This document shows positions 7,226-52,031 of a DNA stretch of 64,000 nt, piece after piece. Positions within the stretch are counted from its first letter, which is position 1, and every line of letters begins with the position of its first letter. The DNA comes from Clostridia bacterium. Lineage in GTDB: Bacteria; Bacillota; Clostridia; Oscillospirales; CAG-272. The stretch covers positions 92,893 through 156,892 of the forward strand of contig JAFYMF010000010.1 of NCBI GenBank assembly GCA_017556745.1. The letters run 5' to 3'. The translations under genes and the position numbers were made by a program. The notes under the pieces are model-generated. The model saw only the letters and a program-made list of their open reading frames with translations. It was not told the DNA's origin and did no database searches.

Positions 7226-8917
7226 ATGAAGAACTTTAAATATTTTATTGTTTCGTTTATACTGATTATCTGCTTTGTTCTTTTTGCTTGTTCTGAGAAT
7301 AAACCGATAGAAAACAATCCGGACACAACCGATAATACTATAGCTGAAGTACCGAAAAACAATGAAAGAAAGATATATAAACACGTTTTACTTATCGGTG
7401 TAGACGGTGCCGGAGCTTATTTTAAGGATGCAGATACACCTAACCTTGATCGCATTTTTAAAGACGGAAATGTTACGTACGATGTTAGGGCAGAAGCACC
7501 TACTTACAGTTTTTCGAACTGGATCAGTATCTTCCACGGTATAGAATCTAACGTTCACAAAATGTACGATAAGACATATGTACCTTATCCGAGTGAATCC
7601 GATTTCCCCAGTATATTCCGTGCTATTTTAGAGCAGAATCCTGACGCGAGTGTTACCTCTGTTGCGTGGGATACTTTAAATGTCGGTCTGATAGAAAAAG
7701 ACATAAACGTAAATAAGATAACAACACAAGGCGGAGATTTTTTTACCGTCGAGAGTGTTTGTCAGTATCTCGATAACAATGGTGCTCCTACATTTTTGTT
7801 TACGGCTTTTGGTGATGTAGATGTAGTTGCTCATGATGATTCATGGGGCGGTGCCGGACATCTCGGTCTGATAAGAAACACAGATGTTCTTATCGGTGCG
7901 ATATACAACAAGTACGAGGAGCTCGGTATACTTGATGACACATTAATAATGGTTACGTCAAACCACGGAGGTTACGGAAAAGACCACGGCGGTAACAGAG
8001 ATAGTGAAAAATACGTTATGTTTGCCATAAGCGGAGATAGTGTTATCAAAAACGGATGCGCTGAAGATATGGCTATACGCGATGTTGCGGCGATAACAAT
8101 GTATGCCCTGGGGCTTGACTCACCGGAAAACTGGACAGCCCGTGTTCCGGAGGGGATTTTTGATGGTGTTGGCGGAGAAGAGCGAAACGTCTATGTTTTA
8201 GACAGTAATACAAGATATAGAGAGACTTTGCCAACTCCCTATGAAAACAGTGAAAAATATATCACAAATTACATATCCGATAAGACACTTGAATACTATC
8301 TTACCTTTGACGGTGCGGTAGAGGATAAATTCGGAAATGAGATAACTGTAACCGATGATTACCATTATATTGATGGTATCTTCGGAGAGGGTATAAGACT
8401 TGACAACGGATATCTGACTATTCCCGAATATTCAAATGGCGGAGAAGCCTTTACCATTGCTATGTGGCTTCAGATAAAGTCTGATTACGGTAATCCCATA
8501 ATTCTTACCAATAAGGATCAGGCTGACACTAATAGCAAAGGATTTTCAGTAGCTATTGAAAATATAGGTGGCAAGCCTTATATCACGGAAACTATCGGTG
8601 ACGAAAGCTCGTCTGTTTATAAGTTCCAGAAACTCCCGTCAGATTATGTCGATGGATGGGTGCACCTAATATTTGCATACGATCCGAGTGAAGAAACTGC
8701 GAAAATATCTATTGATTTCGGTGAGTTTAAAAACATCAAATTGAATGATGATATGTCTGCGGATTCATTCGAGAGCAATAGCCCTATGTATATCGGTTTC
8801 TACCCGGATAGAGAAGATCTTCACGCCTTTGACGGTGCTATAGATGAGTTTATGCAGTTCAGCGGATGCTTTACCGATGAGGACGTACTTGCACTTGAGG
8901 CATATTACGGTAAATAA
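7226..8917 (+). CDS. Lipoprotein: alkaline-phosphatase-superfamily phosphodiesterase/pyrophosphatase domain plus C-terminal LamG-like domain
   Basis: Lipobox LFAC. The motifs LLIGVDGAG...TYSFSNW...SNHGGYGKDHGG are typical of type I phosphodiesterase / nucleotide pyrophosphatase. The C-terminal ~200 aa have a LamG/concanavalin-like pattern (FDGAIDEF). Confidence 0.65.
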   Translation: MKNFKYFIVSFILIICFVLFACSENKPIENNPDTTDNTIAEVPKNNERKIYKHVLLIGVDGAGAYFKDADTPNLDRIFKDGNVTYDVRAEAPTYSFSNWISIFHGIESNVHKMYDKTYVPYPSESDFPSIFRAILEQNPDASVTSVAWDTLNVGLIEKDINVNKITTQGGDFFTVESVCQYLDNNGAPTFLFTAFGDVDVVAHDDSWGGAGHLGLIRNTDVLIGAIYNKYEELGILDDTLIMVTSNHGGYGKDHGGNRDSEKYVMFAISGDSVIKNGCAEDMAIRDVAAITMYALGLDSPENWTARVPEGIFDGVGGEERNVYVLDSNTRYRETLPTPYENSEKYITNYISDKTLEYYLTFDGAVEDKFGNEITVTDDYHYIDGIFGEGIRLDNGYLTIPEYSNGGEAFTIAMWLQIKSDYGNPIILTNKDQADTNSKGFSVAIENIGGKPYITETIGDESSSVYKFQKLPSDYVDGWVHLIFAYDPSEETAKISIDFGEFKNIKLNDDMSADSFESNSPMYIGFYPDREDLHAFDGAIDEFMQFSGCFTDEDVLALEAYYGK

Positions 8918-43103: not shown

Positions 43104-43424
43104 ATGTATACGGAAGAAAACAATATGATGTCACGTGAAATGATCGGTAACGAGTATCTTTTGCATGCGGCTGACAATAGAGGGCACAAATGTGATATGC
43201 CAAATAACAGATGTAACAGAAATACAGATAACGGCATAAGATGTACACCAAGCAAGACCTTTGGTCTTGATGGCTATCCTCTTGCCTCGATGTATGCTCC
43301 GCTTCAGGAATTCAGAAATCTATACGATAAGGAGACTGCTCTTATGGATGGCACTCTTTTTGCAGAGCTTAATCTTCCTTTTATGGGTGCAAGTGTTACA
43401 AAAGGAAGGTGTTTACATGATTAA
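43104..43424 (+). CDS. cotJA: Spore coat-associated protein CotJA
   Basis: GYPLASMYAPLQEFRNLYDKETALMDGTLFAELNLPF matches the CotJA family core. First gene of the cotJ operon. The exact start is uncertain. Confidence 0.75.
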   Translation: MYTEENNMMSREMIGNEYLLHAADNRGHKCDMPNNRCNRNTDNGIRCTPSKTFGLDGYPLASMYAPLQEFRNLYDKETALMDGTLFAELNLPFMGASVTKGRCLHD

Positions 43425-43746
43425 TTCCGGTAGACTAGATAGACGTGATTTATCAGCGGTGCGAAGATGTTCTGGGACAAATATCACGCCAAAGGAGACA
43501 AGAAAGCTCATCCATGAACTTCAACTCATAGATTTTTCGCTGATTGATACAATACTGTATCTTGATGCATATCCTTGCTCGGCAGAGGCACTTGATCACT
43601 ATCATAAACTACTTGCCGAAAAGAAGAAGATAGAAGAACTGCTGAGTCAAAGTGGATATCCCATAACAGCTAAAAACAATATATCCACATCTGCTTGGAA
43701 ATGGACAGATGGTCCATGGCCCTGGGAACTTGACGCTAACATGTGA
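43417..43746 (+). CDS. cotJB: Spore coat protein CotJB
   Basis: IDFSLIDTILYLDAYPCSAEALDHYH...GPWPWE. The ATG at 43417 follows an AAAGGAAGG RBS and overlaps the cotJA stop. Confidence 0.85.
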   Translation: MINSGRLDRRDLSAVRRCSGTNITPKETRKLIHELQLIDFSLIDTILYLDAYPCSAEALDHYHKLLAEKKKIEELLSQSGYPITAKNNISTSAWKWTDGPWPWELDANM

Positions 43747-43766
43747 GGAAAGGACGGACATACAGC

Positions 43767-43953
43767 ATGTGGATTTATGAAAAGAAACTTGAATATCCCG
43801 TTAAGATAAAGCACCCAAATTTACAAATTGCTAATATAGTGGTATCACAGCTTGGTGGACCGGATGGGGAACTCGGTGCATCTATGAGGTATCTTCATCA
43901 AAGATATTCCTGCCCCAATGCAAAAATAAGCGGAATACTGACAGATGTCGGTA
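43767..43953 (+). CDS. cotJC: cotJC 5' segment (codons 1-62 of a split manganese-catalase-family spore coat gene)
   Basis: MWIYEKKLEYPVKIK...GGPDGELGASMRYLHQRY...ILTDVG is colinear with the CotJC N-terminus. Homology stops at 43953. The ORF then reads 9 unrelated codons and stops at 43980-43982. Confidence 0.85.
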
Positions 43954-43985
43954 TAGAGGATATAAATTGTGCATTTATGTGATAA

Positions 43986-44220
43986 AAAATATTTATGAGG
44001 AAAAATCTCCTTTAAAAAAATCTTTCATACTTATTATGTAAACTTACATGAGTGAGTTTCGAAAAATATTTTTAATAAAGGAGAAAATTTTTTATGGAAA
44101 AAAATTTCATTTTCAATGGCGCTACTTATAATACTCGCGAGGAAGCAGAAGAGGCAGTATTTAACTATGCTACCGAAACATACGATGATATGTTGGATGA
44201 ATGCAATGAAGAGGTCAAAA
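43986..44220 (+). repeat. Repeat A, copy 1 (5' regulatory region plus first codons of orf93)
   Basis: Near-identical to 44577-44764: AAAATATTTATGAGGAAAAATCTCC...TCTTTCATACTT...AAACTTAC-N4-GT(G/A)AGTTT...AAGGAGAAA..ATGGAAAAAA. The coding part is alignable except for a 45-nt indel. Confidence 0.85.
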
Positions 44221-44375
44221 TCGGTAGTTTATCCTATCCTGTGTCATATGTTTTCAAAAGAGTTGATGAAATCGCTTATCGTTGTGGTTTGAACGATTAT
44301 GCTGATAGTTTGTTGTATGACATTGAAACAGAAGAGGTTGAACCAGAGGAAGACGAAATTGACGAAGAAAGATAA
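44094..44375 (+). CDS. Small acidic hypothetical protein (93 aa)
   Basis: AAAGGAG RBS. Highly acidic C-terminus (EEVEPEEDEIDEER). Shares its first ~12 codons and the DMLDEC-EEVK block with the downstream methyltransferase gene. Confidence 0.6.
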   Translation: MEKNFIFNGATYNTREEAEEAVFNYATETYDDMLDECNEEVKIGSLSYPVSYVFKRVDEIAYRCGLNDYADSLLYDIETEEVEPEEDEIDEER

Positions 44376-44407
44376 TACCAAGAAATGAACTAACCTAATA
44401 CAGAAAG

Positions 44408-44439
44408 AACGAGATGTCTCCGGGACATTTCGTTTTTTC
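44408..44439 (+). terminator. Rho-independent terminator
   Basis: AACGAGATGTC / GACATTTCGTT stem (one G-U pair) plus T6. Confidence 0.7.
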
Positions 44440-44467
44440 TGTTTACTACTGAATTTTATTCTGTCAC

Positions 44468-44546
44468 GCTTTGTTTGGATGTGTGCCGTATGGAGTAGGT
44501 TGGTGCTGTTATGTCTTGTTAAGTTCGGTTCTGCGAAAAAAACGGA
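44468..44546 (+). repeat. Repeat B, copy 1 (79 bp)
   Basis: GCTTTGTTTGGATGTGTGCCGTATGGAGTAGGTTGGTGCTGTTATGTCTTGTTAAGTTCGGTTCTGCGAAAAAAACGGA. It differs from copy 2 by 2 substitutions and 1 A-run indel. Confidence 0.9.
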
Positions 44547-44576
44547 TTTCCGTGAAGGATCCATCAAAAAACCAAC

Positions 44577-44764
44577 AAAATATTTATGAGGAAAAATCTC
44601 CTTTTATAAAATCTTTCATACTTTTCATGAAAACTTACACCAGTAAGTTTGTGAAAAATATATTTTATAAGGAGAAATTTCTATGGAAAAAATTTTTGTT
44701 TTTAATAACAGTCCTTACAACACATGCGAGGATATGCTGGATGAATGCTATGATGAGGTCAAAA
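44577..44764 (+). repeat. Repeat A, copy 2 (5' regulatory region plus first codons of the methyltransferase gene)
   Basis: See copy 1. It contains the perfect inverted repeat AAACTTAC-acca-GTAAGTTT (44631-44650). Confidence 0.85.
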
Positions 44765-45390
44765 CACCGAAAAAAGCAACGAAAGTTCCAGAGAGTAAGA
44801 CGAACAATAATATTTTCACTCCCTTGGGGGCAAGTAACCATTCGAACAAAAAACGAGAAGAACATGACTATTATGCAACTGACCCAAAGGCGTTGGAACT
44901 CTTGTTAGAACTTGAATCCTTTTCCAATTATGTATGGGAGTGTGCTTGCGGTGGCGGACATTTAAGTGAAGTCCTAAAAAAACACGGTCACGATGTAAAG
45001 TCAACAGATATTATTGACCGCGGTTATGAGGGAACAGAACTCATGGACTTTTTGACTGTAACCAAAGAAGACATAGCAAACGAGCACTCAAGAGATATTA
45101 TCACAAACCCACCTTACAAGTATGGAAAAGAGTTTGTAGAGCATGCATTGAACATTTCCCCAGAGGGAACAAAAATTGCCATGTTCTTAAAAGTACAATT
45201 CCTTGAGGGGAAAGCACGCAAAGCACTGTTCAACAAGTACCCACCCAAAACAATCTATGTATCGTCAAGTAGATTGCTGTGTGCCAAAAATGGTGTGTTT
45301 AAAGAAGACGAAAGTTCCGCTATAGCGTATGCTTGGTATATTTGGGAAAAGGGTTATGCCGGTGACACCATAATCAAATGGTTTAACTAA
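44683..45390 (+). CDS. Orphan DNA methyltransferase (NPPY, N6-adenine/N4-cytosine type) with an N-terminus borrowed from the orf93 family
   Basis: HDYYATDPKALELLL, VWECACGGGHLSEVL (SAM-binding) and IITNPPYKYG (catalytic) motifs. There is no adjacent restriction endonuclease gene. Confidence 0.75.
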   Translation: MEKIFVFNNSPYNTCEDMLDECYDEVKTPKKATKVPESKTNNNIFTPLGASNHSNKKREEHDYYATDPKALELLLELESFSNYVWECACGGGHLSEVLKKHGHDVKSTDIIDRGYEGTELMDFLTVTKEDIANEHSRDIITNPPYKYGKEFVEHALNISPEGTKIAMFLKVQFLEGKARKALFNKYPPKTIYVSSSRLLCAKNGVFKEDESSAIAYAWYIWEKGYAGDTIIKWFN

Positions 45391-45417
45391 AACAAAGGCG
45401 AAAGTTCTAATCTGCCT

Positions 45418-45497
45418 GCTTTGTTTGGATGTGTGCCGTATGGAGTAGGTTGGTGCAGTTATGTCTTGTTAAGTTTGGTTCTGCGAAAAAAAACGGA
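45418..45497 (+). repeat. Repeat B, copy 2 (80 bp)
   Basis: See copy 1. It starts 28 bp after the methyltransferase stop. Confidence 0.9.
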
Positions 45498-45591
45498 ATT
45501 TTTGCAATTTTCCGATTTTCAATCAAACTTGTCATACTTATATCGTAACAAAATACATAGTTCCCACGAATATGGGAAGAAAGGAAAAGTC

Positions 45592-45807
45592 ATGAAAGAA
45601 TTAAAAAAGTATATGGAATGTCTAAACGATGAAGAGTTCGGGCGACTTGTCAAAACATATTTTTATTATATGACACATCAAGACATTCCACCGAATATTG
45701 ATAGTCGCGCAGAACAGATATTTAGAACGACCATCAAAGCAAAATGTGATGTTCAACTTAAAGACAGAATAAGAAAAAGAAAGGGGAAAACAAATGCGAG
45801 AGGTTAA
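45592..45807 (+). CDS. Small hypothetical protein (72 aa), phage/plasmid replisome-organiser-N-terminal-like motif
   Basis: AAGGAAAAG RBS with ATG at 45592. LNDEEFGRLVKTYFYY resembles the L(S/T)DEExGxL motif of DnaD-like / DUF6291-type proteins. Basic C-terminus. Confidence 0.5.
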   Translation: MKELKKYMECLNDEEFGRLVKTYFYYMTHQDIPPNIDSRAEQIFRTTIKAKCDVQLKDRIRKRKGKTNARG

Positions 45808-46375
45808 AGACACGTTGGGAATAAAATATGATAAGTATGCTCTGTTGTATAATATGGATGACAGAGATGCCGGAAAACTGATAAAGTATTTGTTGTGGCA
45901 CTTTGGAAAGGACTGCATTTTAGAAAACTTGACAGCAGTATCAAAGAAGAAAATCACAGAGTATTCGAACAAGTTGGAAAAAGATGTTGAGGATATGCTG
46001 GATGATTTTCTGTTTGATAAGATATTTACAGAAATGACACAGCAAGTAACTAAATCACATAAATGTTGGCAAACTCTCAAAGATAACTTGGAAAAAAACA
46101 AAGGCAAAAATAAAGATACAGTAGAGAATCAAGGAACTGAACCACCGTGGGAACCGCCGTGTGTCCCCAATATGCATGTTATAGACATATACATAGAGGA
46201 AACCGGGGAAATTGAAACGATTATCGTGGAGGAAGAATACAAGAACAACACACCGTCCGGTGAGGAGTTAAATGCACACTTTTTATCTGATGATATTAAA
46301 TATATTATTATGAACGGGAATGGAAACGGATGGGTGGAACATTGGAGCGAATATGAACCATGTTCAAATAGTTAA
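45794..46375 (+). CDS. Hypothetical protein (193 aa)
   Basis: Overlaps the upstream stop by 14 nt. Contains the MDDRDAGKLIKYLLWH motif, similar to the previous ORF, and YDKYALLY, shared with the next ORF. Confidence 0.55.
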   Translation: MREVKDTLGIKYDKYALLYNMDDRDAGKLIKYLLWHFGKDCILENLTAVSKKKITEYSNKLEKDVEDMLDDFLFDKIFTEMTQQVTKSHKCWQTLKDNLEKNKGKNKDTVENQGTEPPWEPPCVPNMHVIDIYIEETGEIETIIVEEEYKNNTPSGEELNAHFLSDDIKYIIMNGNGNGWVEHWSEYEPCSNS

Positions 46376-46396
46376 TAGAAGAAAGGAGAACAAAAC

Positions 46397-46636
46397 GTGA
46401 GAACAGTTAAAAACAGTAGCGGTCATACATATCTAATACTTGCGGAATACGATAAATACGCCCTGCTGTATTGTCAACACTATAACGAGTACATTGTTGC
46501 ATATGGCATGGAAAATCAATTGTGTAACACAATAAAATGGCAGCAAGGTAGGTATTTCCAAAACGACCAAATCGCTGCTATAAACTACTTCAACGAAAAA
46601 ACACTAGAAAAGAAAGGAGAAACAATCAATGGATGA
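46397..46636 (+). CDS. Hypothetical protein (79 aa)
   Basis: GAAAGGAG RBS with GTG start. Shares the MRxVK...YDKYALLY pattern with the 193-aa ORF, with synonymous third-position differences. Confidence 0.5.
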   Translation: MRTVKNSSGHTYLILAEYDKYALLYCQHYNEYIVAYGMENQLCNTIKWQQGRYFQNDQIAAINYFNEKTLEKKGETING

Positions 46637-46814
46637 TAAAATCACTTGGGAAGATTTAGAGATTATCTTCACAAAAGAATTCGTTGACACCCTTAAACTG
46701 ATATATCAAAACAAAGACAGCATACTGCGATTAGCGAAAAAAAGGCAATCAGCACTCAAAGATATCGAAAATATGCTGAAAGATATCGAAGAGAAAAAGT
46801 ACAAAGATGATTGA
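46629..46814 (+). CDS. Hypothetical protein (61 aa)
   Basis: GAAAGGAG RBS. Overlaps the upstream gene by 8 nt. Predicted helical and charged. Confidence 0.45.
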   Translation: MDDKITWEDLEIIFTKEFVDTLKLIYQNKDSILRLAKKRQSALKDIENMLKDIEEKKYKDD

Positions 46815-46946
46815 CAGATACACACAGAAATCACTGTCGGTAGACCTTGCGGACTTGGTACAAGTCGTAGTAAGTCATATTTCTGCGAAATGGAAACAGT
46901 TTCGCTCATACTGTTATCATTAGAGCAGAGATATGACCGCACGAAG

Positions 46947-47050
46947 AAATACCCTCGTCGGATCGACGAGGGTATTTTGCAGTAAGGTTTAACGGCAACA
47001 ACTACCGCTTTCTGTTGCCGTTCCTTTGCTCCCACAATTTTGAGCAAAGG
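46947..47050. other. Three consecutive perfect hairpins upstream of the relaxase gene (candidate oriT region)
   Basis: Hairpin 1 is AAATACCCTCGTCG-gat-CGACGAGGGTATTT (46947-46977). Hairpin 2 is AACGGCAACA-N12-TGTTGCCGTT (46991-47022). Hairpin 3 is CCTTTGCTC-N10-GAGCAAAGG (47023-47050) and overlaps the mob RBS. Confidence 0.4.
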
Positions 47051-47061
47051 AGATTTTTGAC

Positions 47062-47754
47062 ATGAGCAGATATGCAATCATGCGATTTCAAAAATATAAG
47101 GTGGGTTCGGTCGCAAACATCGAGCGACACCAAAACCACCGTGACCGCCTCCGCAATCGCAAGTACCCAGAGCGAGAGGGCGAAAACTACACTTGGAAAC
47201 GATATGATGAAACAATGACGCAGACAGTCCGCAAAGCGATAAAAGCACAGGAGCAGGAGACTGGGCGAAAAGTCCGCAAGGATGTAAATGTGATATGTGA
47301 GTTGGTGCTGACATTCTCCCCCGAAATGGAACACGAGGTTGATTTAGTGGAATGGATGAAAGCAAACATCCGATGGGTTGGCAGAACATTCGGCAAAGGG
47401 AAAACCTTGAGAGTTGACCTAAACCGAGACGAAACCACCACTCATATACATTGCTTCGTGATAATGACCGATGAGCAAGGGAGATTCAATTCTTCGCGAT
47501 TCTTCAACAAGAAAAAACAAGTCATAGAAATGCAAGACAGTTATGCCGAAGCAATGAAACAATTTGGACTTGAAAGAGGACAGAGCAAGGATATTACTAG
47601 TGCAAGACATAAAACTTTACAAGAATGGAGAACGGAGGAGTGTGAGCGGTTGGAAAAGGAACTTTCTCATATTGCGGATAGAATATTTGCAGATAAACCG
47701 AAAATCGAATACAAAGGAACGATTGATACCGATGTGTTAAATGATGAACGATAA
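47062..47754 (+). CDS. MobV-family (Mob_Pre) relaxase, short form
   Basis: MSRYAIMRFQKYKVGSVANIERHQNHRDR resembles the N-terminus of pMV158 MobM (M..ARMQK.K.G.L....H..R). RDETTTHIHCFV corresponds to the HxDExxPHxH motif. It is only 230 aa. Confidence 0.8.
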   Translation: MSRYAIMRFQKYKVGSVANIERHQNHRDRLRNRKYPEREGENYTWKRYDETMTQTVRKAIKAQEQETGRKVRKDVNVICELVLTFSPEMEHEVDLVEWMKANIRWVGRTFGKGKTLRVDLNRDETTTHIHCFVIMTDEQGRFNSSRFFNKKKQVIEMQDSYAEAMKQFGLERGQSKDITSARHKTLQEWRTEECERLEKELSHIADRIFADKPKIEYKGTIDTDVLNDER

Positions 47755-47811
47755 AAAGGTGCTGTTTTTAACATTTCTCTAAAATGGCTTTACTTTTATG
47801 GGAATATGTGC

Positions 47812-47984
47812 TATAATAGTTATGCCACACAAACCGAATACTTATGCTCGTTTAGGGGGAGATTACCTTGGCAAAAGGTGCTCTCCTTAATCCCCTATGC
47901 GAGTAGAGCGGAGGTTTGTGTGGCAACGAACGAGGATGTAGCACTTTTTCGGTGTGTACGACCTCGGTCGTGCACACTTTTTTT
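47812..47984 (+). ncRNA. Candidate structured RNA or single-strand DNA element: ~100-nt rod-like hairpin with its own promoter-like -10 and terminator
   Basis: TGcTATAAT at 47809-47817. The 12-bp closing helix GCCACACAAACC (47824-47835) / GGTTTGTGTGGC (47913-47924) encloses nested helices CTCG/CGAG, TAGGGG/CCCCTA, GAGA/TCTC and CCTT/AAGG. A 12-bp terminator stem at 47952-47977 is followed by T7. Confidence 0.45.
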
Positions 47985-48004
47985 ATTATACTGGAGGAAA
48001 TCAA

Positions 48005-48706
48005 ATGAAAACCAAAACATTAGTAACACTGTTACTCACAATAGTGATGATACTGTCACTCGCATCTTGTAACAAAAATCAACTAAGCGAACAGCCCACC
48101 GAAACCGAAAATGATATTCCCGAAACTAGCAATCAATCTGTATCCCCAACAGATATCGATGATACAAGTTCTATTACCCCCTTACCTACTGATACGGATG
48201 ATTCAACAGAAACTGCTGATGATAGTATTTTGTATTCTGGTCGAGAAATGTATGAAGAAATCATTTATGCATTTATAGAAGCAGATGATGAACTTTCTAG
48301 AGGTTGGTTCGACAAAGATGCTCAAAATTTAGTTCGGTTAATTAAAGGTGATACTATATCTTCTGATGCATCAGTAACAGATTTATTAAAGGTTTACAGA
48401 GGTTTTGATGATATAATTGAATTTACTGATTATTGTATTAGAGATTTTTTCACTGTGACAAATTCTTATGAATCAACAAATGGTGGTGTATACAATTTTT
48501 TTGAGGCAATAAATCAGTTGGAAGATGAAAAACTAAACAATTGCGATGTTATTAAGACCAATTCGAATGGAAATGTAATAGGTTTTGATTTCGATATTGC
48601 TGGTGGAGATAAGGCAATTGCACAGGCATTGGGAGTAAGCGAAGAATTTGTAAATATTATGATACATGCTGCTTCCGATGCAGGATTCAACGTGACATTT
48701 GATTAG
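48005..48706 (+). CDS. Lipoprotein of unknown function (element cargo)
   Basis: GGAGGAAA RBS. MKTKTLVTLLLTIVMILSLASC signal peptide with lipobox. A T/D/E/S-rich linker is followed by a ~170-aa globular domain. Confidence 0.65.
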   Translation: MKTKTLVTLLLTIVMILSLASCNKNQLSEQPTETENDIPETSNQSVSPTDIDDTSSITPLPTDTDDSTETADDSILYSGREMYEEIIYAFIEADDELSRGWFDKDAQNLVRLIKGDTISSDASVTDLLKVYRGFDDIIEFTDYCIRDFFTVTNSYESTNGGVYNFFEAINQLEDEKLNNCDVIKTNSNGNVIGFDFDIAGGDKAIAQALGVSEEFVNIMIHAASDAGFNVTFD

Positions 48707-48765
48707 TTTACATACAAAAGATATGGGAGAAAAGAAAAATCTCTCATATCTTTTTTAACAATGTT

Positions 48766-49521
48766 TTATTTTTGCTTACATTGAGATAATAATTCTGCAA
48801 GGATATTTTGGAATGGAACAATACTTGCTAATGCTTTTTTACTATCAAACCACCCGTGCATTAGATTGTTTGCTTTACAAAACCACATTGAGGAAATATG
48901 ATTTAGAAAAATATCGTTCTTAATTTTTTCGGTAAAATCATTTGCGTACATTTCGCAAATAGAGCGGATTCCCCAATAATTGTATAAAACTCCTACTGCC
49001 ATTTTTAATGTTTCGAAATCATTTGGAAAATCTGTTTTACTAAATAAATCAATAGCAAGTTGTTGTTTTTCCTCTATGTATTCTAACACTGTTTTACTTA
49101 TTGAAAATGGTTTGATAAGGGTATTCATCGTAAAATTAGGAACATCGTCAATCGTATTTGCTCCAAGTAATTTTACCAACCCTACTTGTGATGCATGGTA
49201 TTCGCTAAATCCTGTAATACCCAAATATATAATTTTATTTCCTTGGGCAAATTGATGTGCATCAAGTATATGGGTAAATTCATGAAAAATCAAAAAATCG
49301 GAATTTAAAACATTTCTATTGACCGTAAGTGTGTGTGAATTTGTATCAACTTTGTAATCTGCGGCAGCAATAGAACCAGCACCAAATGAATCAATCTCGC
49401 TTTGAGATACCTCGTCTATTTTAATCATATATGTAGGGAAATCTTTGATTTCCATAAACCGCATATATTCTTTTTCAAGATTTCTAATTTTTAACTCTAA
49501 TCTATCTATTTTAACTTTCAT
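48766..49521 (-). CDS. HExxH-motif protein (putative zinc metallopeptidase; distant ImmA/IrrE-like?)
   Basis: 251 aa, cytoplasmic. FLIFHEFTHILDAH contains HExxH, with a downstream EYH. It lies 23 nt downstream of the recombinase gene on the same strand. Confidence 0.55.
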   Translation of the reverse strand: MKVKIDRLELKIRNLEKEYMRFMEIKDFPTYMIKIDEVSQSEIDSFGAGSIAAADYKVDTNSHTLTVNRNVLNSDFLIFHEFTHILDAHQFAQGNKIIYLGITGFSEYHASQVGLVKLLGANTIDDVPNFTMNTLIKPFSISKTVLEYIEEKQQLAIDLFSKTDFPNDFETLKMAVGVLYNYWGIRSICEMYANDFTEKIKNDIFLNHISSMWFCKANNLMHGWFDSKKALASIVPFQNILAELLSQCKQK

Positions 49522-49544
49522 TCCTCAAATCTTCCTAACTCATC

Positions 49545-51302
49545 TTAAATCTTTTCAAATCCGTTTTTAGGTGCTTTTCCAAGCATTTCGACAAACTGTT
49601 CTTTTGAAAGAACAGTAAACTCTGCCGTGTAGTCCTCGCCCCTGCCTGTGGTCTTATATTGCAGATAGATAGGCATAGGAATGAACGACAAGTGAAACTC
49701 AAGCAAATTGTCGGGATATACAAAAATCTGCTTTGTCGCTCTCTCATAGTAGACGTCGTTCAAATCATCGGCAGAGAGGTCAACCATTTCTTGCAGTTGC
49801 TTTATGTAGTCCTCGTATATCCGTATCTCTGCTTCAGTAGTGTCTGATATCTGTAAATTTTTCAGTTCGGTCTGCAATTGTTCAAATTCATCATTTACCG
49901 TTACGATTGTTGCTTGATAAGCACTTTCTGGAACAATGCCACTTATCCATCCCTGTGTGAGTTTGGCAAGTTGCTCCTGTTTCTTTGATATTGCCTTTTC
50001 CAATTCTGCGATTTTCGTGGTGTTGTCCTTGGGTTTGGAAAGTTCCTCTATATCCCTTTGCAATTCTGCGAGAATGATGTCTTTGTTCGGGATGAGGTAA
50101 TCTGCCACAATATCATGAACGGCAGTTTTAAGCACTCTGTCATTCACTCTCAAAGCATTACAACCAACAGTAGTGATTTCGCCCGTGTCAAGTGTTATTT
50201 GCTTGTAGCGACCTCTCTGGTGGTTCTCAAAGCATACCCAAGCACGATACGGAATATTCTTCTGCTTCTTTACGTAACTGACATACCGCCGACCGCACAA
50301 ACCGCAGTAAACCTTGCCACTCGTCCAGTATCGGTTGGAGTGCTTCGCCTTGATTTCTTCGCTCGGTGCTTTCTCTTCAAGTATGGTCTGTACCTTGTTC
50401 CAAAGTTCTCGGTCGATGATAGCACTTTCCGGGTGGTGGTCTTGTATGTAAAACATATGTGATTCGCCACGGTTGTATTTCTTTTTATGGGTGAGTGCAT
50501 TTGGTGTATATGTCTTACCTTGTGCCAAATCTCCTACATATTTCTCATTTCGCAGTATACGAAGAATAACGGTATTACTCCAACCGTTTTTGTATCTTTT
50601 TGTGGTTATTCCTTGCTGTTCCAATCGCCTTGCAATACGGTGTGTGCCTTCGCCTGCTGCAAACCATTCGAACATGTTCTTGATGACCTTTGCTTCCTCT
50701 GGAACGATTTCAAAGTGCTGTATACCAAGTTCATCTTTAACAATATTGTAACCGTACATCTCTTTTCGACCGAAAACCGTACCAAGTTCCATCTGTTGTT
50801 GGTGTCCCCATTTGACACGGCGAGATGTTCGCAAACTCTCTTGCTCTGCATTTGTTGCGATTTGAGTGAGTCGCTCTCGATAGTCGTTGCTCTCCGTATT
50901 GATGTCATCCGACAAGAACCAGATATAAACTCCTTTGGCGCGGAGTTCTTCGACAATATTCAAAAGGTGCTGAACATTTCGTGAAAAACGCGAAACCTCT
51001 TTTGTGAGGATGATGTCTATACCGCCACTACGAGCAAGGTGGAGCATACGAATGAAACCATCTCTTTTTTCAAGAGAGGTGCCAGAAAGTCCCTCATCCG
51101 CAAAAATTCCAACATTGCTCCAATTCTTGTGAGAATTGAAATACCGAGCGAAAAACTGCTTTTGTGCTATCAGAGAGTTCTTTTGGTCGCTCTCATCGGT
51201 AGATACACGGCAGTAGGCACAAACACGGTGCGGTTCGTTATCATTTGTTTTGAGTGGTCGTTTTGCGGGTTCTATTACTGTTGTTGTTCCCATTTTGCAC
51301 AT
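49545..51302 (-). CDS. Large serine recombinase
   Basis: The N-terminal resolvase domain carries the catalytic-Ser context AYCRVSTDESDQ. Further features are SRFSRN, a recombinase domain, a zinc-ribbon (CGLCGRRY...WVCFENH...VGC) and a C-terminal coiled coil. 585 aa, as in SpoIVCA/SprA-type enzymes. Confidence 0.9.
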   Translation of the reverse strand: MCKMGTTTVIEPAKRPLKTNDNEPHRVCAYCRVSTDESDQKNSLIAQKQFFARYFNSHKNWSNVGIFADEGLSGTSLEKRDGFIRMLHLARSGGIDIILTKEVSRFSRNVQHLLNIVEELRAKGVYIWFLSDDINTESNDYRERLTQIATNAEQESLRTSRRVKWGHQQQMELGTVFGRKEMYGYNIVKDELGIQHFEIVPEEAKVIKNMFEWFAAGEGTHRIARRLEQQGITTKRYKNGWSNTVILRILRNEKYVGDLAQGKTYTPNALTHKKKYNRGESHMFYIQDHHPESAIIDRELWNKVQTILEEKAPSEEIKAKHSNRYWTSGKVYCGLCGRRYVSYVKKQKNIPYRAWVCFENHQRGRYKQITLDTGEITTVGCNALRVNDRVLKTAVHDIVADYLIPNKDIILAELQRDIEELSKPKDNTTKIAELEKAISKKQEQLAKLTQGWISGIVPESAYQATIVTVNDEFEQLQTELKNLQISDTTEAEIRIYEDYIKQLQEMVDLSADDLNDVYYERATKQIFVYPDNLLEFHLSFIPMPIYLQYKTTGRGEDYTAEFTVLSKEQFVEMLGKAPKNGFEKI

Positions 51303-51552
51303 CCTCTCTCTTAATACCCATAACGTCTCTTATGTACTTCTTGAACTCTTCAACGAAAACTGCTTGTGCTTCCGGTGTCTTAAAAAGTGCATCTGGGTTT
51401 GTAATCACAAAGGTGTGCTCCTTGCTATGTGTATTTACATAGCAAGCATATGATTCTGCGATGTATTTTAGTAATTCATCCTCATTTGTAATTGTGGAAG
51501 CAACCGTGAATTGTTCTGCGGTCATGTACTCTTTATAGTTATAAAAGTCCAT
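51241..51552 (-). CDS. Small hypothetical protein (103 aa), first gene of the recombinase operon
   Basis: GGAGGG RBS lies 6 nt before the ATG at 51552; the track ORF starts further upstream, inside cotJC sequence, which is implausible. Its 3' end overlaps the recombinase start by about 60 nt in another frame. Confidence 0.5.
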   Translation of the reverse strand: MDFYNYKEYMTAEQFTVASTITNEDELLKYIAESYACYVNTHSKEHTFVITNPDALFKTPEAQAVFVEEFKKYIRDVMGIKREDVQNGNNNSNRTRKTTTQNK

Positions 51553-51574
51553 TTTCATCCCTCCTGTCATATCT

Positions 51575-51603
51575 ATTATATCATGCACAATTTTATTCGT
51601 CAA
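51575..51603 (-). promoter_or_regulatory. Near-consensus sigma-A promoter of the recombinase operon, embedded in the right att arm
   Basis: On the minus strand: TTGACG (51603-51598), 17 bp, TGaTATAAT (-10 at 51580-51575). The -35 box ends 2 bp from the GGTA core. Confidence 0.55.
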
Positions 51604-51609
51604 TAGGTA

Positions 51610-52031
51610 CCGAAGAACTCGCCCACCTTGAGATTGTGGCGGCAATACTTCACCAGCTAACACGTGACCTTACCCCCGATCAGATAGCAGGTACTCCTTT
51701 TGCTACATATTTTGTAGATCATACCGCTGGAGTATACCCAGTAGCTGCCTCGGGAGTACCGTTTGATATGAAATACGTAGGAGTAAAGGGCGATCTTCTC
51801 ACCGACCTTAATGAAGATCTTGCGGCAGAACAAAAAGCGAGAACGACCTACGATAATATTCTTCGCCTCGTTGACGATCCTGACGTAAGAGATCCGATAA
51901 AATTCCTTCGTGCGAGAGAGATCGTTCACTATCAGAGGTTTGGCGATGCCCTGCGTATAGCACAGGATAATTTGGACCACAAGAACTTTTACGCTTGCAA
52001 TCCTTCATTTGACAAAAACTGCGGGAAATAA
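51610..52031 (+). CDS. cotJC: cotJC 3' segment (codons 63-202)
   Basis: In-frame (T)EELAHLEIVAAILHQLT...GVPF...LAAEQKARTTYD...FLRAREIVHYQRF is colinear with the CotJC/Mn-catalase C-terminal part. There is no RBS or ATG of its own. Confidence 0.85.

Follow-up and report, generated by a model that had tools for sequence, protein, structure and literature searches.

In the clostridial element Tn4451, the relaxase TnpZ has its site upstream of the tnpZ gene. Tn4451 and Tn4453, from Clostridium perfringens and C. difficile, are excised as a circle by the serine recombinase TnpX and carry TnpZ, which is of the MobV/Pre type (PMC5704250). The minimal origin of transfer (oriT) of plasmid pMV158 comprises the hairpin IR1 and 8 nucleotides (nt), ATAGTGTG/T, while its IR3 has a 3-nt ATA bulge in the right arm and ends at the nick; promoter and oriT overlap in this plasmid (PMC5863519). 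MobSag, the 418 amino acid (aa) relaxase of IMESag-rpsI, nicks TAGTGCG/T (PMC5090054). Among the elements that interrupt sporulation genes, gin in gerE is not a prophage, and its authors state that its transfer route is unknown (PMC5595907); cotJC of Laceyella sacchari has likewise been mentioned as the site of a 'skin-like' element (bioRxiv 10.1101/2022.02.25.481979). Literature searches gave no earlier account that connects relaxases with intervening elements, or mobilizable elements with cotJC. Here, a 7,656-bp insert that splits cotJC and encodes a 230-aa MobV relaxase, Mob, is described from a 64,000-nt stretch of DNA of a Clostridia bacterium (GCA_017556745.1, contig JAFYMF010000010.1, positions 92,893 to 156,892), referred to as the window, to which all coordinates refer.

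The insert is probably an integrative mobilizable element (IME) of the Tn4451 type and not a phage relic, a reading given a probability of about 0.72. An integrase at one end, identical short cores, a relaxase and an inferred oriT are the IME traits found in it, and the combination of a serine recombinase with a MobV relaxase places it within the known Tn4451-type architecture (PMC5704250). PHROGs scans found no structural phage genes in the element, as an initial annotation of this DNA had stated; the same annotation held that known sporulation intervening elements are prophages or their relics, which was incomplete, as the non-viral gin in gerE is published (PMC5595907). Searches with Pfam, NCBIfam and PHROGs gave no conjugation families among the other open reading frames (ORFs) of the element. 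Judged from its sequence, the element is an IME with a sporulation gene as its specific target, a minimal MobV and an unusually elaborate oriT-like module. The interrupted operon, the borders and the recombinase end are as follows.

43104-43424, plus strand: cotJA (Pfam CotJA, E=2e-12).
43261-43746, plus strand: ORF whose final 75 codons form the CotJB domain of cotJB (Pfam CotJB, E=1.4e-18).
43767-43953, plus strand: cotJC 5' fragment from its ATG at 43767, matching Mn_catalase profile positions 1-67; junction placed by reading.
43950-43953, plus strand: attL core GGTA, which ends the cotJC 5' fragment.
43954-51609: intervening element with a core-to-core length of 7,656 bp; junctions read from the sequence.
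49545-51302, minus strand: large serine recombinase, 585 aa, at the attR end (Pfam Resolvase, Recombinase and Zn_ribbon_recom).
51241-51552, minus strand: 103-aa ORF directly upstream of the recombinase on the shared strand.
51575-51603, minus strand: near-consensus vegetative-type promoter TTGACG-17-TGaTATAAT, found by reading.
51606-51609, plus strand: attR core GGTA, followed by the cotJC 3' fragment, to 52031.
51636-52031, plus strand: cotJC 3' fragment, matching Pfam Mn_catalase profile positions 108-198.

Together, cotJA, cotJB and the cotJC 5' fragment span 43104-43982. Joining attL and attR at GGTA in silico preserves the reading frame as ...TDVG|TEELAHLEIV..., the family's conserved metal-binding motif, within an unbroken Mn-catalase ORF of CotJC length that runs through the TDVGTEELAHLE motif; excision of the element in silico thus restores cotJC. 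The recombinase matches the phrog_95 integrase (E=1.7e-110). The 103-aa ORF gave no family match in Pfam, PADLOC or PHROGs scans; it is found by tblastn at 32-83% identity beside the recombinase in most cotJC-type loci, and is a candidate directionality factor or regulator. The promoter, which has an extended -10, adjoins the attR core, reads into the operon of the small ORF and the recombinase, and is kept at the equivalent position in loci L001, L009-L012, L014 and L042. A vegetative-type promoter at the recombinase operon would be unexpected if excision were confined to sporulation, and no sporulation promoter was recognised by eye upstream of this operon. The suggestion that excision in development is coupled to transfer, made in the initial annotation, finds no support in the sequence.

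The evidence for a transfer function begins with the relaxase gene itself.

47062-47754, plus strand: mob, predicted MobV relaxase of 230 aa, with a relaxase domain at residues 1-190, a helix at 186-209 and an acidic C-terminal tail.

Mob matches Pfam Mob_Pre PF01076 over positions 1-194 of the 196-position profile (E=6.2e-27; 95.1 bits against a cutoff of 25.5), and it also matches the NCBIfam model NF041497 'MobV family relaxase' with 114.4 bits (cutoff 100), and these profile matches bear out the MobV identity first proposed. A sequence search of the PDB returned a sole significant match, the relaxase domain of MobM from pMV158 (4lvi, E=2.9e-10), with Mob residues 4-190 aligned to residues 2-192 of the MobM chain. 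An AlphaFold (AF2) model built on 45 family members reached a mean predicted local distance difference test (pLDDT) score of 85.4, and a Foldseek search with it placed MobM structures in all of the top seven positions in the PDB (4lvk etc., E=3e-11, target TM-score 0.70-0.76), followed by the NES relaxase as the next fold match. In the model, residues 186-209 form a long helix and the chain ends in a short one, and the C-terminal 40 residues are conserved in the form ECERLEKEL ... D/E-I-F-D-D/E-L-R.

Mob H23, which is invariant in the 45 family members, aligns with the catalytic H22 of MobM, in keeping with the N-terminal likeness to MobM noted earlier; the Arg of motif I is shifted by one position (HQNHR) relative to HxxR. 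R72-K73-D74, E80, D123, H128 and H130 are invariant in the family alignments. Motif III reads N121-R-D-E-T-T-T-H128-I-H130, in which the Asp and both His are conserved and the Glu is nearly invariant. The earlier equation of RDETTTHIH with HxDE..PHxH is therefore right for the Asp, the Glu and the two final His, but the motif here is NxDE...THxH, with an Asn throughout the subfamily. N121 occupies the position of MobM His126 and the motif III Pro is not conserved; the near invariance of Asn121 across the subfamily indicates a lineage trait and not damage.

The short length of Mob is also a family property. A word-indexed search yielded 155 clusters of Mob homologues, defined at 90% identity, nearly all of them 228-231 or 242-243 aa long, one of which is 100% identical to the window protein and labelled as a Clostridia metagenome-assembled genome (MAG). 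The mob ORF is intact, at 228-242 aa, in 21/21 genomic loci; against the window copy, nonsynonymous divergence (dN) in these 21 loci is 0.19-0.39 and synonymous divergence (dS) is saturated, and by this comparison mob is evidently under strong purifying selection. An exhaustive phmmer search found 3,574 relatives at E<=1e-3 among 1.84 billion representatives, and proteins of 200-275 aa make up about a third of the 150 closest, so short MobV proteins are frequent in metagenomes, although those that have been characterised are longer, and the C-terminal region is not universal in the family. The closest plasmid relatives have 322 aa and 31% identity. Taken with the model, these comparisons indicate that ORF 47062-47754 is a genuine, full-length MobV/Mob_Pre relaxase domain. 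A decaying or truncated gene, which the initial annotation had considered, is ruled out by the conserved length of the consistently intact homologues at ~230 aa, the saturated dS with low dN, and the invariant catalytic residues. Separately, a 4.2-kb cotJC element (L034) keeps only a 45-codon mob remnant (residues 128-172; 8207-8341 of that locus), so mob can decay in some copies.

Upstream of mob lies a structured non-coding region, whose parts are listed here.

46834-47061, plus strand: conserved non-coding module, candidate oriT and leader, with five hairpins on the mob-sense strand.
46846-46877, plus strand: H0, with outer stem CTTGC/GTAAG and inner stem GACTTG (46852-57)/CAAGTC (46861-66), then GTAGTAAG (46867-74).
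46874-46937, plus strand: HA, a long hairpin with imperfect pairing, GTCATATTTCTGC/GCAGAGATATGAC, that encloses a further stem at 46889-46921; outer helix 99.6% paired.
46947-46977, plus strand: H1, a perfect 14-bp stem with a 3-nt loop, followed by GTAAGGT at 46982-46988.
46991-47022, plus strand: H2, a perfect 10-bp stem with a 12-nt loop.
47022-47051, plus strand: H3, a perfect 10-bp stem with a 10-nt loop, holding the mob Shine-Dalgarno sequence.

In a blastn comparison of the element with 35 related loci, nucleotide homology, seen with 20+ of them, starts sharply at 46834/46842 and continues through mob. Between the window and 19 loci, the 228-bp module is ~80% identical, whereas Mob is ~60% identical and fourfold sites are at ~30%, which equals random; constraint is thus tighter on the non-coding DNA than on mob. 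The three back-to-back perfect hairpins reported at the outset are present, the last of them sequestering the mob ribosome-binding site; the stem lengths of 14 and 10 bp are as first given, and the third stem has 10 bp and not 9. Their proposed role as oriT holds in so far as the upstream region is a strong candidate, but they make up no more than the 3' half of the conserved module. The three-hairpin cluster is unique within the window and goes beyond chance: when the 115 nt were shuffled 20,000 times by dinucleotides, no shuffle had three perfect stems of 9 bp or more, and 0.6% had even one. Fold z-scores of the 231-nt region were -8.8 for DNA and -9.8 for RNA.

The structure was tested with 65 proposed pairs in an alignment of 22 loci, with controls in which the partners were slid by 1-3 columns. 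Pairs of the five hairpins are formed in 93.9% of cells, compared with 40-43% in the slid controls; compensatory changes on both sides occur in 17 pairs (3-9 in the controls), and covariation scores 0.189, compared with 0.04-0.05 for the controls. In H0 the inner stem is 100% paired, with compensatory changes in 4/6 pairs and five distinct, perfectly complementary versions, and H1 has 9 pairs with compensatory changes, its sequence being wholly different between sub-clades with the hairpin kept. The GTAAGGT that follows H1 is conserved, repeats the flank of H0 and can pair with ACCTT(A/G)C 5' of H0, which would permit alternative structures reminiscent of the overlapping pMV158 repeats. Where only one side of a pair has changed in HA, H2 or H3, the outcome is nearly always a G.T/G.U wobble on the plus strand; since the opposite strand would then have C.A mismatches, selection acts on the structure in single-stranded form with mob-sense polarity. 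The strand concerned may be either the mRNA or the DNA strand that is transferred.

At the 3' end of the module, the Shine-Dalgarno sequence AAAGGAG (47046-47052) lies within the H3 3' arm GAGCAAAGGA, 10 nt ahead of the ATG. The H3 stem is conserved and its loop variable in the 22 loci, and a distant clade (L023-L030) has an analogous anti-Shine-Dalgarno pairing in which both arms are of other sequence. H3 looks like an anti-Shine-Dalgarno stem, most simply one limiting mob translation. A search for an Rfam family in the region upstream of mob gave chance-level matches only, and no conserved sigma-70 promoter was recognised for mob, the lone tool match (46891-46920) being specific to the window. 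H1 was also considered as a plain terminator of the upstream genes and rejected, since its equivalents are mostly A/T-stemmed or 17 bp long and do not have the shape of a terminator. Three Logan contigs from independent runs (L038, L039 and L040) all start 112 nt upstream of an 87%-identical mob, at the H1 palindrome; these shared starts are probably an assembly break caused by the hairpin.

The most invariant part of the module is the candidate nick site at 46852-46877, ~70 bp upstream of H1-H3. An 11-mer, GTAGTAAGTCA, at 46867-46877 (GTAGTAAG followed by TCA) lies 3' of the H0 inner stem and occurs once in the window; each of 31 loci has exactly one copy, in every case carried by the mob strand 185-230 nt upstream of the gene. 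It is kept behind differing hairpins where Mob is only ~50-55% identical (L022-L031, L041 and L047). The candidate consists of the H0 hairpin, a GTA bulge, the 5-bp outer stem and the 8 nt of GTAGTAAG, then T, and this pMV158-like geometry of hairpin, 8 nt and G/T, together with the invariant 11-mer, predicts a nick between G46874 and T46875. On the alignment and the analogy to pMV158, G46874/T46875, after GTAGTAAG, is most likely the best nick candidate; its motif differs from GTGTG/T at two positions, and it lies 187 nt upstream of mob and not immediately upstream. Divergent MobV types in other cotJC elements have a hairpin followed by TAGTGTG/T (L043) or ATAGTAAG/C (L050).

A second candidate is found in H2, where the junction of loop and arm reads CGTGTGTG/TTGCC in most relatives and resembles a MOBV1 nick site. 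In the window this junction is 4 nt shorter, TTTCTGTTGCC, reading TTTCTG/TTGCC; the (GT)n run of the loop varies among loci (GTGTGTG, GTGTG, TGTG) and is reduced to TCTG in the window (47009-47015). GTGTG/TT in the H2 loop was rejected as the main nick site on account of the varying GT-repeat length, the shortened window copy and the invariance of GTAGTAAGTCA, and is kept as a second, weaker candidate.

Related elements show how this arrangement is distributed. Ten of the loci reached through Mob also have cotJC split at the identical Gly-Thr codon pair, with the element ends conserved; in comparison with the window element, insertion codon and ends agree in 9 other loci. As sampling through Mob would bias the set, ten further loci were chosen through recombinase homologues of 62-82% identity: all 10/10 of these elements are in cotJC, and 7/10 carry a relaxase. 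The relaxases comprise two MobV proteins of 224 aa, two of 272 aa and one of 339 aa, a 346-aa protein with a weak Mob_Pre match, and a PF03432 relaxase with a NikA-like protein (L049); the other 3/10 elements have no relaxase, one of them being a 2.7-kb minimal element. The recombinase module is constant, usually with the small ORF beside it, while the mobilization modules differ, which argues that transfer is selected. On these comparisons, different mobilization modules are evidently recruited repeatedly onto one integration module. Host labels of the family include Acutalibacteraceae, Oscillospiraceae, Acetivibrionales, Faecalimonas, Faecousia and Avilachnospira, and sporulation genes are found nearby in the sampled hosts.

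Several of these loci have features of their own. The minimal element of ~2.7 kb (L048, 9241-12667) consists of the recombinase, a 55-aa ORF and one 170-aa ORF. In L042 (9640-9700, 15180-15200) and L049 the element has the opposite orientation in cotJC, with the recombinase beside the 5' fragment. Since GGTACC, the attB core, is a palindrome, integration would be possible in both orientations. L044 (1-17700) shows a tandem accretion at cotJC, in which a prophage-like block (RecT, RusA, YqaJ and repressor-like HTH genes) with its own 512-aa serine recombinase adjoins the cotJC-type recombinase together with genes for MobV and RepL.

From these features we infer nicking at a particular position, transfer with the aid of a helper, and roles for the individual hairpins, in the following scheme. 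The large serine recombinase, probably aided by the small upstream ORF, would excise a circle at the GGTA cores and leave cotJC restored. The 230-aa MobV would then bind the structured site upstream of its own gene on the mob-sense strand and nick it, likely at G46874/T46875, 8 nt 3' of the hairpin, by means of His23 and an Asn/His/His metal site. With the relaxase as pilot, the single strand would leave by a secretion system that a conjugative element in the same cell provides, and since the nick is 5' of mob, the hairpins and mob would be first into the recipient. HA, H1 and H2 plausibly serve relaxase binding, termination or second-strand priming, and H3 would hold mob translation low by sequestering the ribosome-binding site. 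In a new spore-former, the recombinase would integrate the circle at the GGTACC of cotJC, which encodes the Gly-Thr of the very conserved TDxGTEELAHLE.

The alternative that survives best, though an unlikely one, is that the relaxase acts at its site to replicate the excised circle by the rolling-circle mode or to maintain it, or in site-specific 'Pre' recombination, and not for transfer between cells, with the hairpins acting as a single-strand origin. Pfam, PHROGs and NCBIfam searches recognised no replication gene in the element; the strand-specific hairpins downstream of the predicted nick resemble a rolling-circle layout of nick, hairpins and gene, and IMESag-rpsI combines a MobV module with ssoA. 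Relaxase-driven replication also occurs in ICEBs1. However, such replication is compatible with mobilization and not exclusive of it, no ssoA consensus was recognised by eye in the region, and the presence of unrelated relaxases on one integration module, such as the PF03432 and NikA-like proteins of L049, fits selection for transfer better.

Less probable again is that the structured region works chiefly as a 5' leader through which the mob mRNA is regulated, by translational control or attenuation. The oriT would then lie in another place or not exist, and mob would encode a DNA-binding protein that is domesticated or regulatory. The sequestration of the ribosome-binding site by H3 in every clade, the G.U compatibility of all one-sided changes on the sense strand, the z-score of the RNA fold (-9.8) and a run of four T after H1 in the window all fit a leader, but no conserved promoter was found upstream of 46834, where homology starts abruptly, H1 is not terminator-like in most loci, and the most invariant part of the region is a hairpin and 11-mer that match the geometry of a MOBV nick site. 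Moreover, promoter and oriT overlap in pMV158, so a leader and an oriT can coexist. It is highly improbable that the element is an immobile intervening sequence fixed in its lineage, with mob an intact but functionless passenger and the hairpins leftovers: the relaxase is absent from 3/10 recombinase-sampled elements including the 2.7-kb one, L034 has only its Mob remnant, and no circle or empty site turned up in metagenome contigs, but purifying selection is strong on Mob and stronger still on the non-coding site, and the family extends to MAGs labelled Acutalibacteraceae, Acetivibrionales, Faecalimonas, Faecousia and Avilachnospira.

Several observations weigh against the Tn4451-type IME as proposed here. 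The structured region could be at least partly an mRNA leader and not an oriT, the putative first metal-ligand His is an Asn in Mob, and the protein does not have the C-terminal region of ~200-300 aa that MobM uses for dimerisation and probably for coupling. If the H2 loop were the real nick site, the window copy could be impaired. Among the 10 largest other ORFs of the window no helper conjugation genes were found, only metabolic and transport proteins. Searches of metagenome contigs for the exact attP 24-mer (TTCGTCAATAGGTATAGAGGATAT) and the exact attB (GATGTCGGTACCGAAGAACTCGC) gave no match, a result that is uninformative in both cases and leaves excision and empty sites undocumented for the window copy.

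The remainder of the element is cargo, listed below.

44094-44375, 44683-45390, 45421-45807, 45794-46375, 46397-46636 and 46629-46814, plus strand: cargo ORFs, none of them a structural phage gene.
47789-48706, plus strand: cargo cassette with a promoter, a structured leader, a terminator and a lipoprotein-like ORF (ATG at 48005, to 48706).
48716-48756, no strand assigned: bidirectional terminator-like palindrome of 41 bp, ~90% conserved, which flanks mob modules elsewhere.
48766-49521, minus strand: 251-aa ORF with no family match.

The cargo ORFs at 44094-46814 had no tblastn match (E <= 1e-5) among the related loci, and searches of PADLOC, PHROGs, NCBIfam and Pfam gave only a partial methyltransferase match and weak matches, with no clear defence match. 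ORF 44683-45390 is DNA-methyltransferase-like and matches only the middle of phrog_799 (positions 194-380 of 458); it overlaps ORF 44471-44908 in a different frame, and the methyltransferase-like gene may be frameshifted or truncated. In the cassette downstream of mob, a promoter-like site TTTACT-17-TGcTATAAT is followed by a leader of ~160 nt, both within 47789-48005 on the plus strand. The leader is closed by a perfect 12-bp stem (47824-35/47914-25), after which come an intrinsic terminator (47951-47978) and a ribosome-binding site; the layout is like that of a riboswitch or attenuator, with an RNA fold of z = -9.7, and it is conserved, with changes, in L038, L034 and L017. An Rfam search of this leader gave no family and chance-level matches only. 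The 41-bp palindrome, AAAAGATATGrGAGA...TCTCTCATATCTTTTTT, is ~90% identical between loci that are otherwise saturated, and is found in L003, L005, L006, L016 and ~11 further loci. In several loci it occurs ~420 bp upstream and ~160 bp downstream of mob, framing a mob module of ~1.3 kb, and it may mark the edge of a module or a hot spot of recombination.

Sporulation-gene interruptions have so far been read as domesticated prophages, and the cotJC family carries relaxase modules; in the clade of the window, a very strongly conserved oriT-like site accompanies the module. This offers non-viral intervening elements a specific mechanism of transfer that can be tested. The analysis also defines an abundant, uncharacterised class of ~230-aa MobV in gut Clostridia, with a precise prediction of the nick site, which is useful for the annotation of mobilizable elements in microbiomes and raises the question of how a coupling protein is recruited without the usual C-terminal domain. 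A more far-reaching proposal, tentative and as a whole rather doubtful, is that cotJC elements are a widespread and previously undescribed IME family that uses a sporulation gene as safe harbour, in which excision in the mother cell and/or in vegetative cells would yield a transferable circle, so that one recombination switch would serve spore development and conjugative spread, and in which the 230-aa Asn-site MobV with its tandem hairpin-GTAAG(G)T module would represent a new functional relaxase subclass working without the usual C-terminal domain.

In comparison with the known intervening elements, the cotJC element shares with skin (sigK), SPbeta (spsM) and gin (gerE) the splitting of a mother-cell sporulation gene, a serine recombinase with a small ORF at the edge, and a frame that precise excision would restore. 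It is non-viral like gin, whereas skin and SPbeta are prophages or prophage-like. Expression of the recombinase or directionality factor is sporulation-specific in skin, SPbeta and gin, while a vegetative-type promoter is seen here.

With MobM, the protein shares the relaxase fold, the catalytic His (H23 for H22) and the conserved RKD, E, D and HxH, although identity over the domain is only 20-24%, with an Asn for the first metal-ligand His and a Thr for the Pro of PHxH. MobM has a length of 494 aa, and both it and MobSag have a C-terminal dimerisation region that is absent from the 230-aa Mob. As in pMV158, the candidate nick is on the mob-coding strand and 8 nt 3' of a hairpin, with a GTA bulge here for the ATA there, and the motif nTAGTnnG/T is read as TAGTAAG/T here, compared with TAGTGTG/T in pMV158 and TAGTGCG/T for MobSag. 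The cis region is much longer than that of pMV158, having a second hairpin and GTAAGGT unit and an anti-Shine-Dalgarno hairpin. The carrier is integrated, unlike the plasmid pMV158, and has a serine recombinase where IMESag-rpsI has a tyrosine recombinase.

The likeness to Tn4451 lies in a ~6-kb-class element with short identical end cores, no secretion-system genes and mobilization in trans (PMC5704250), and is one of architecture. Tn4451 integrates with low specificity and carries catP, and it is not known to target a sporulation gene, whereas one cotJC codon is targeted here. The relaxase of ~230 aa and the 228-bp cis site with five hairpins further set the cotJC element apart from Tn4451.

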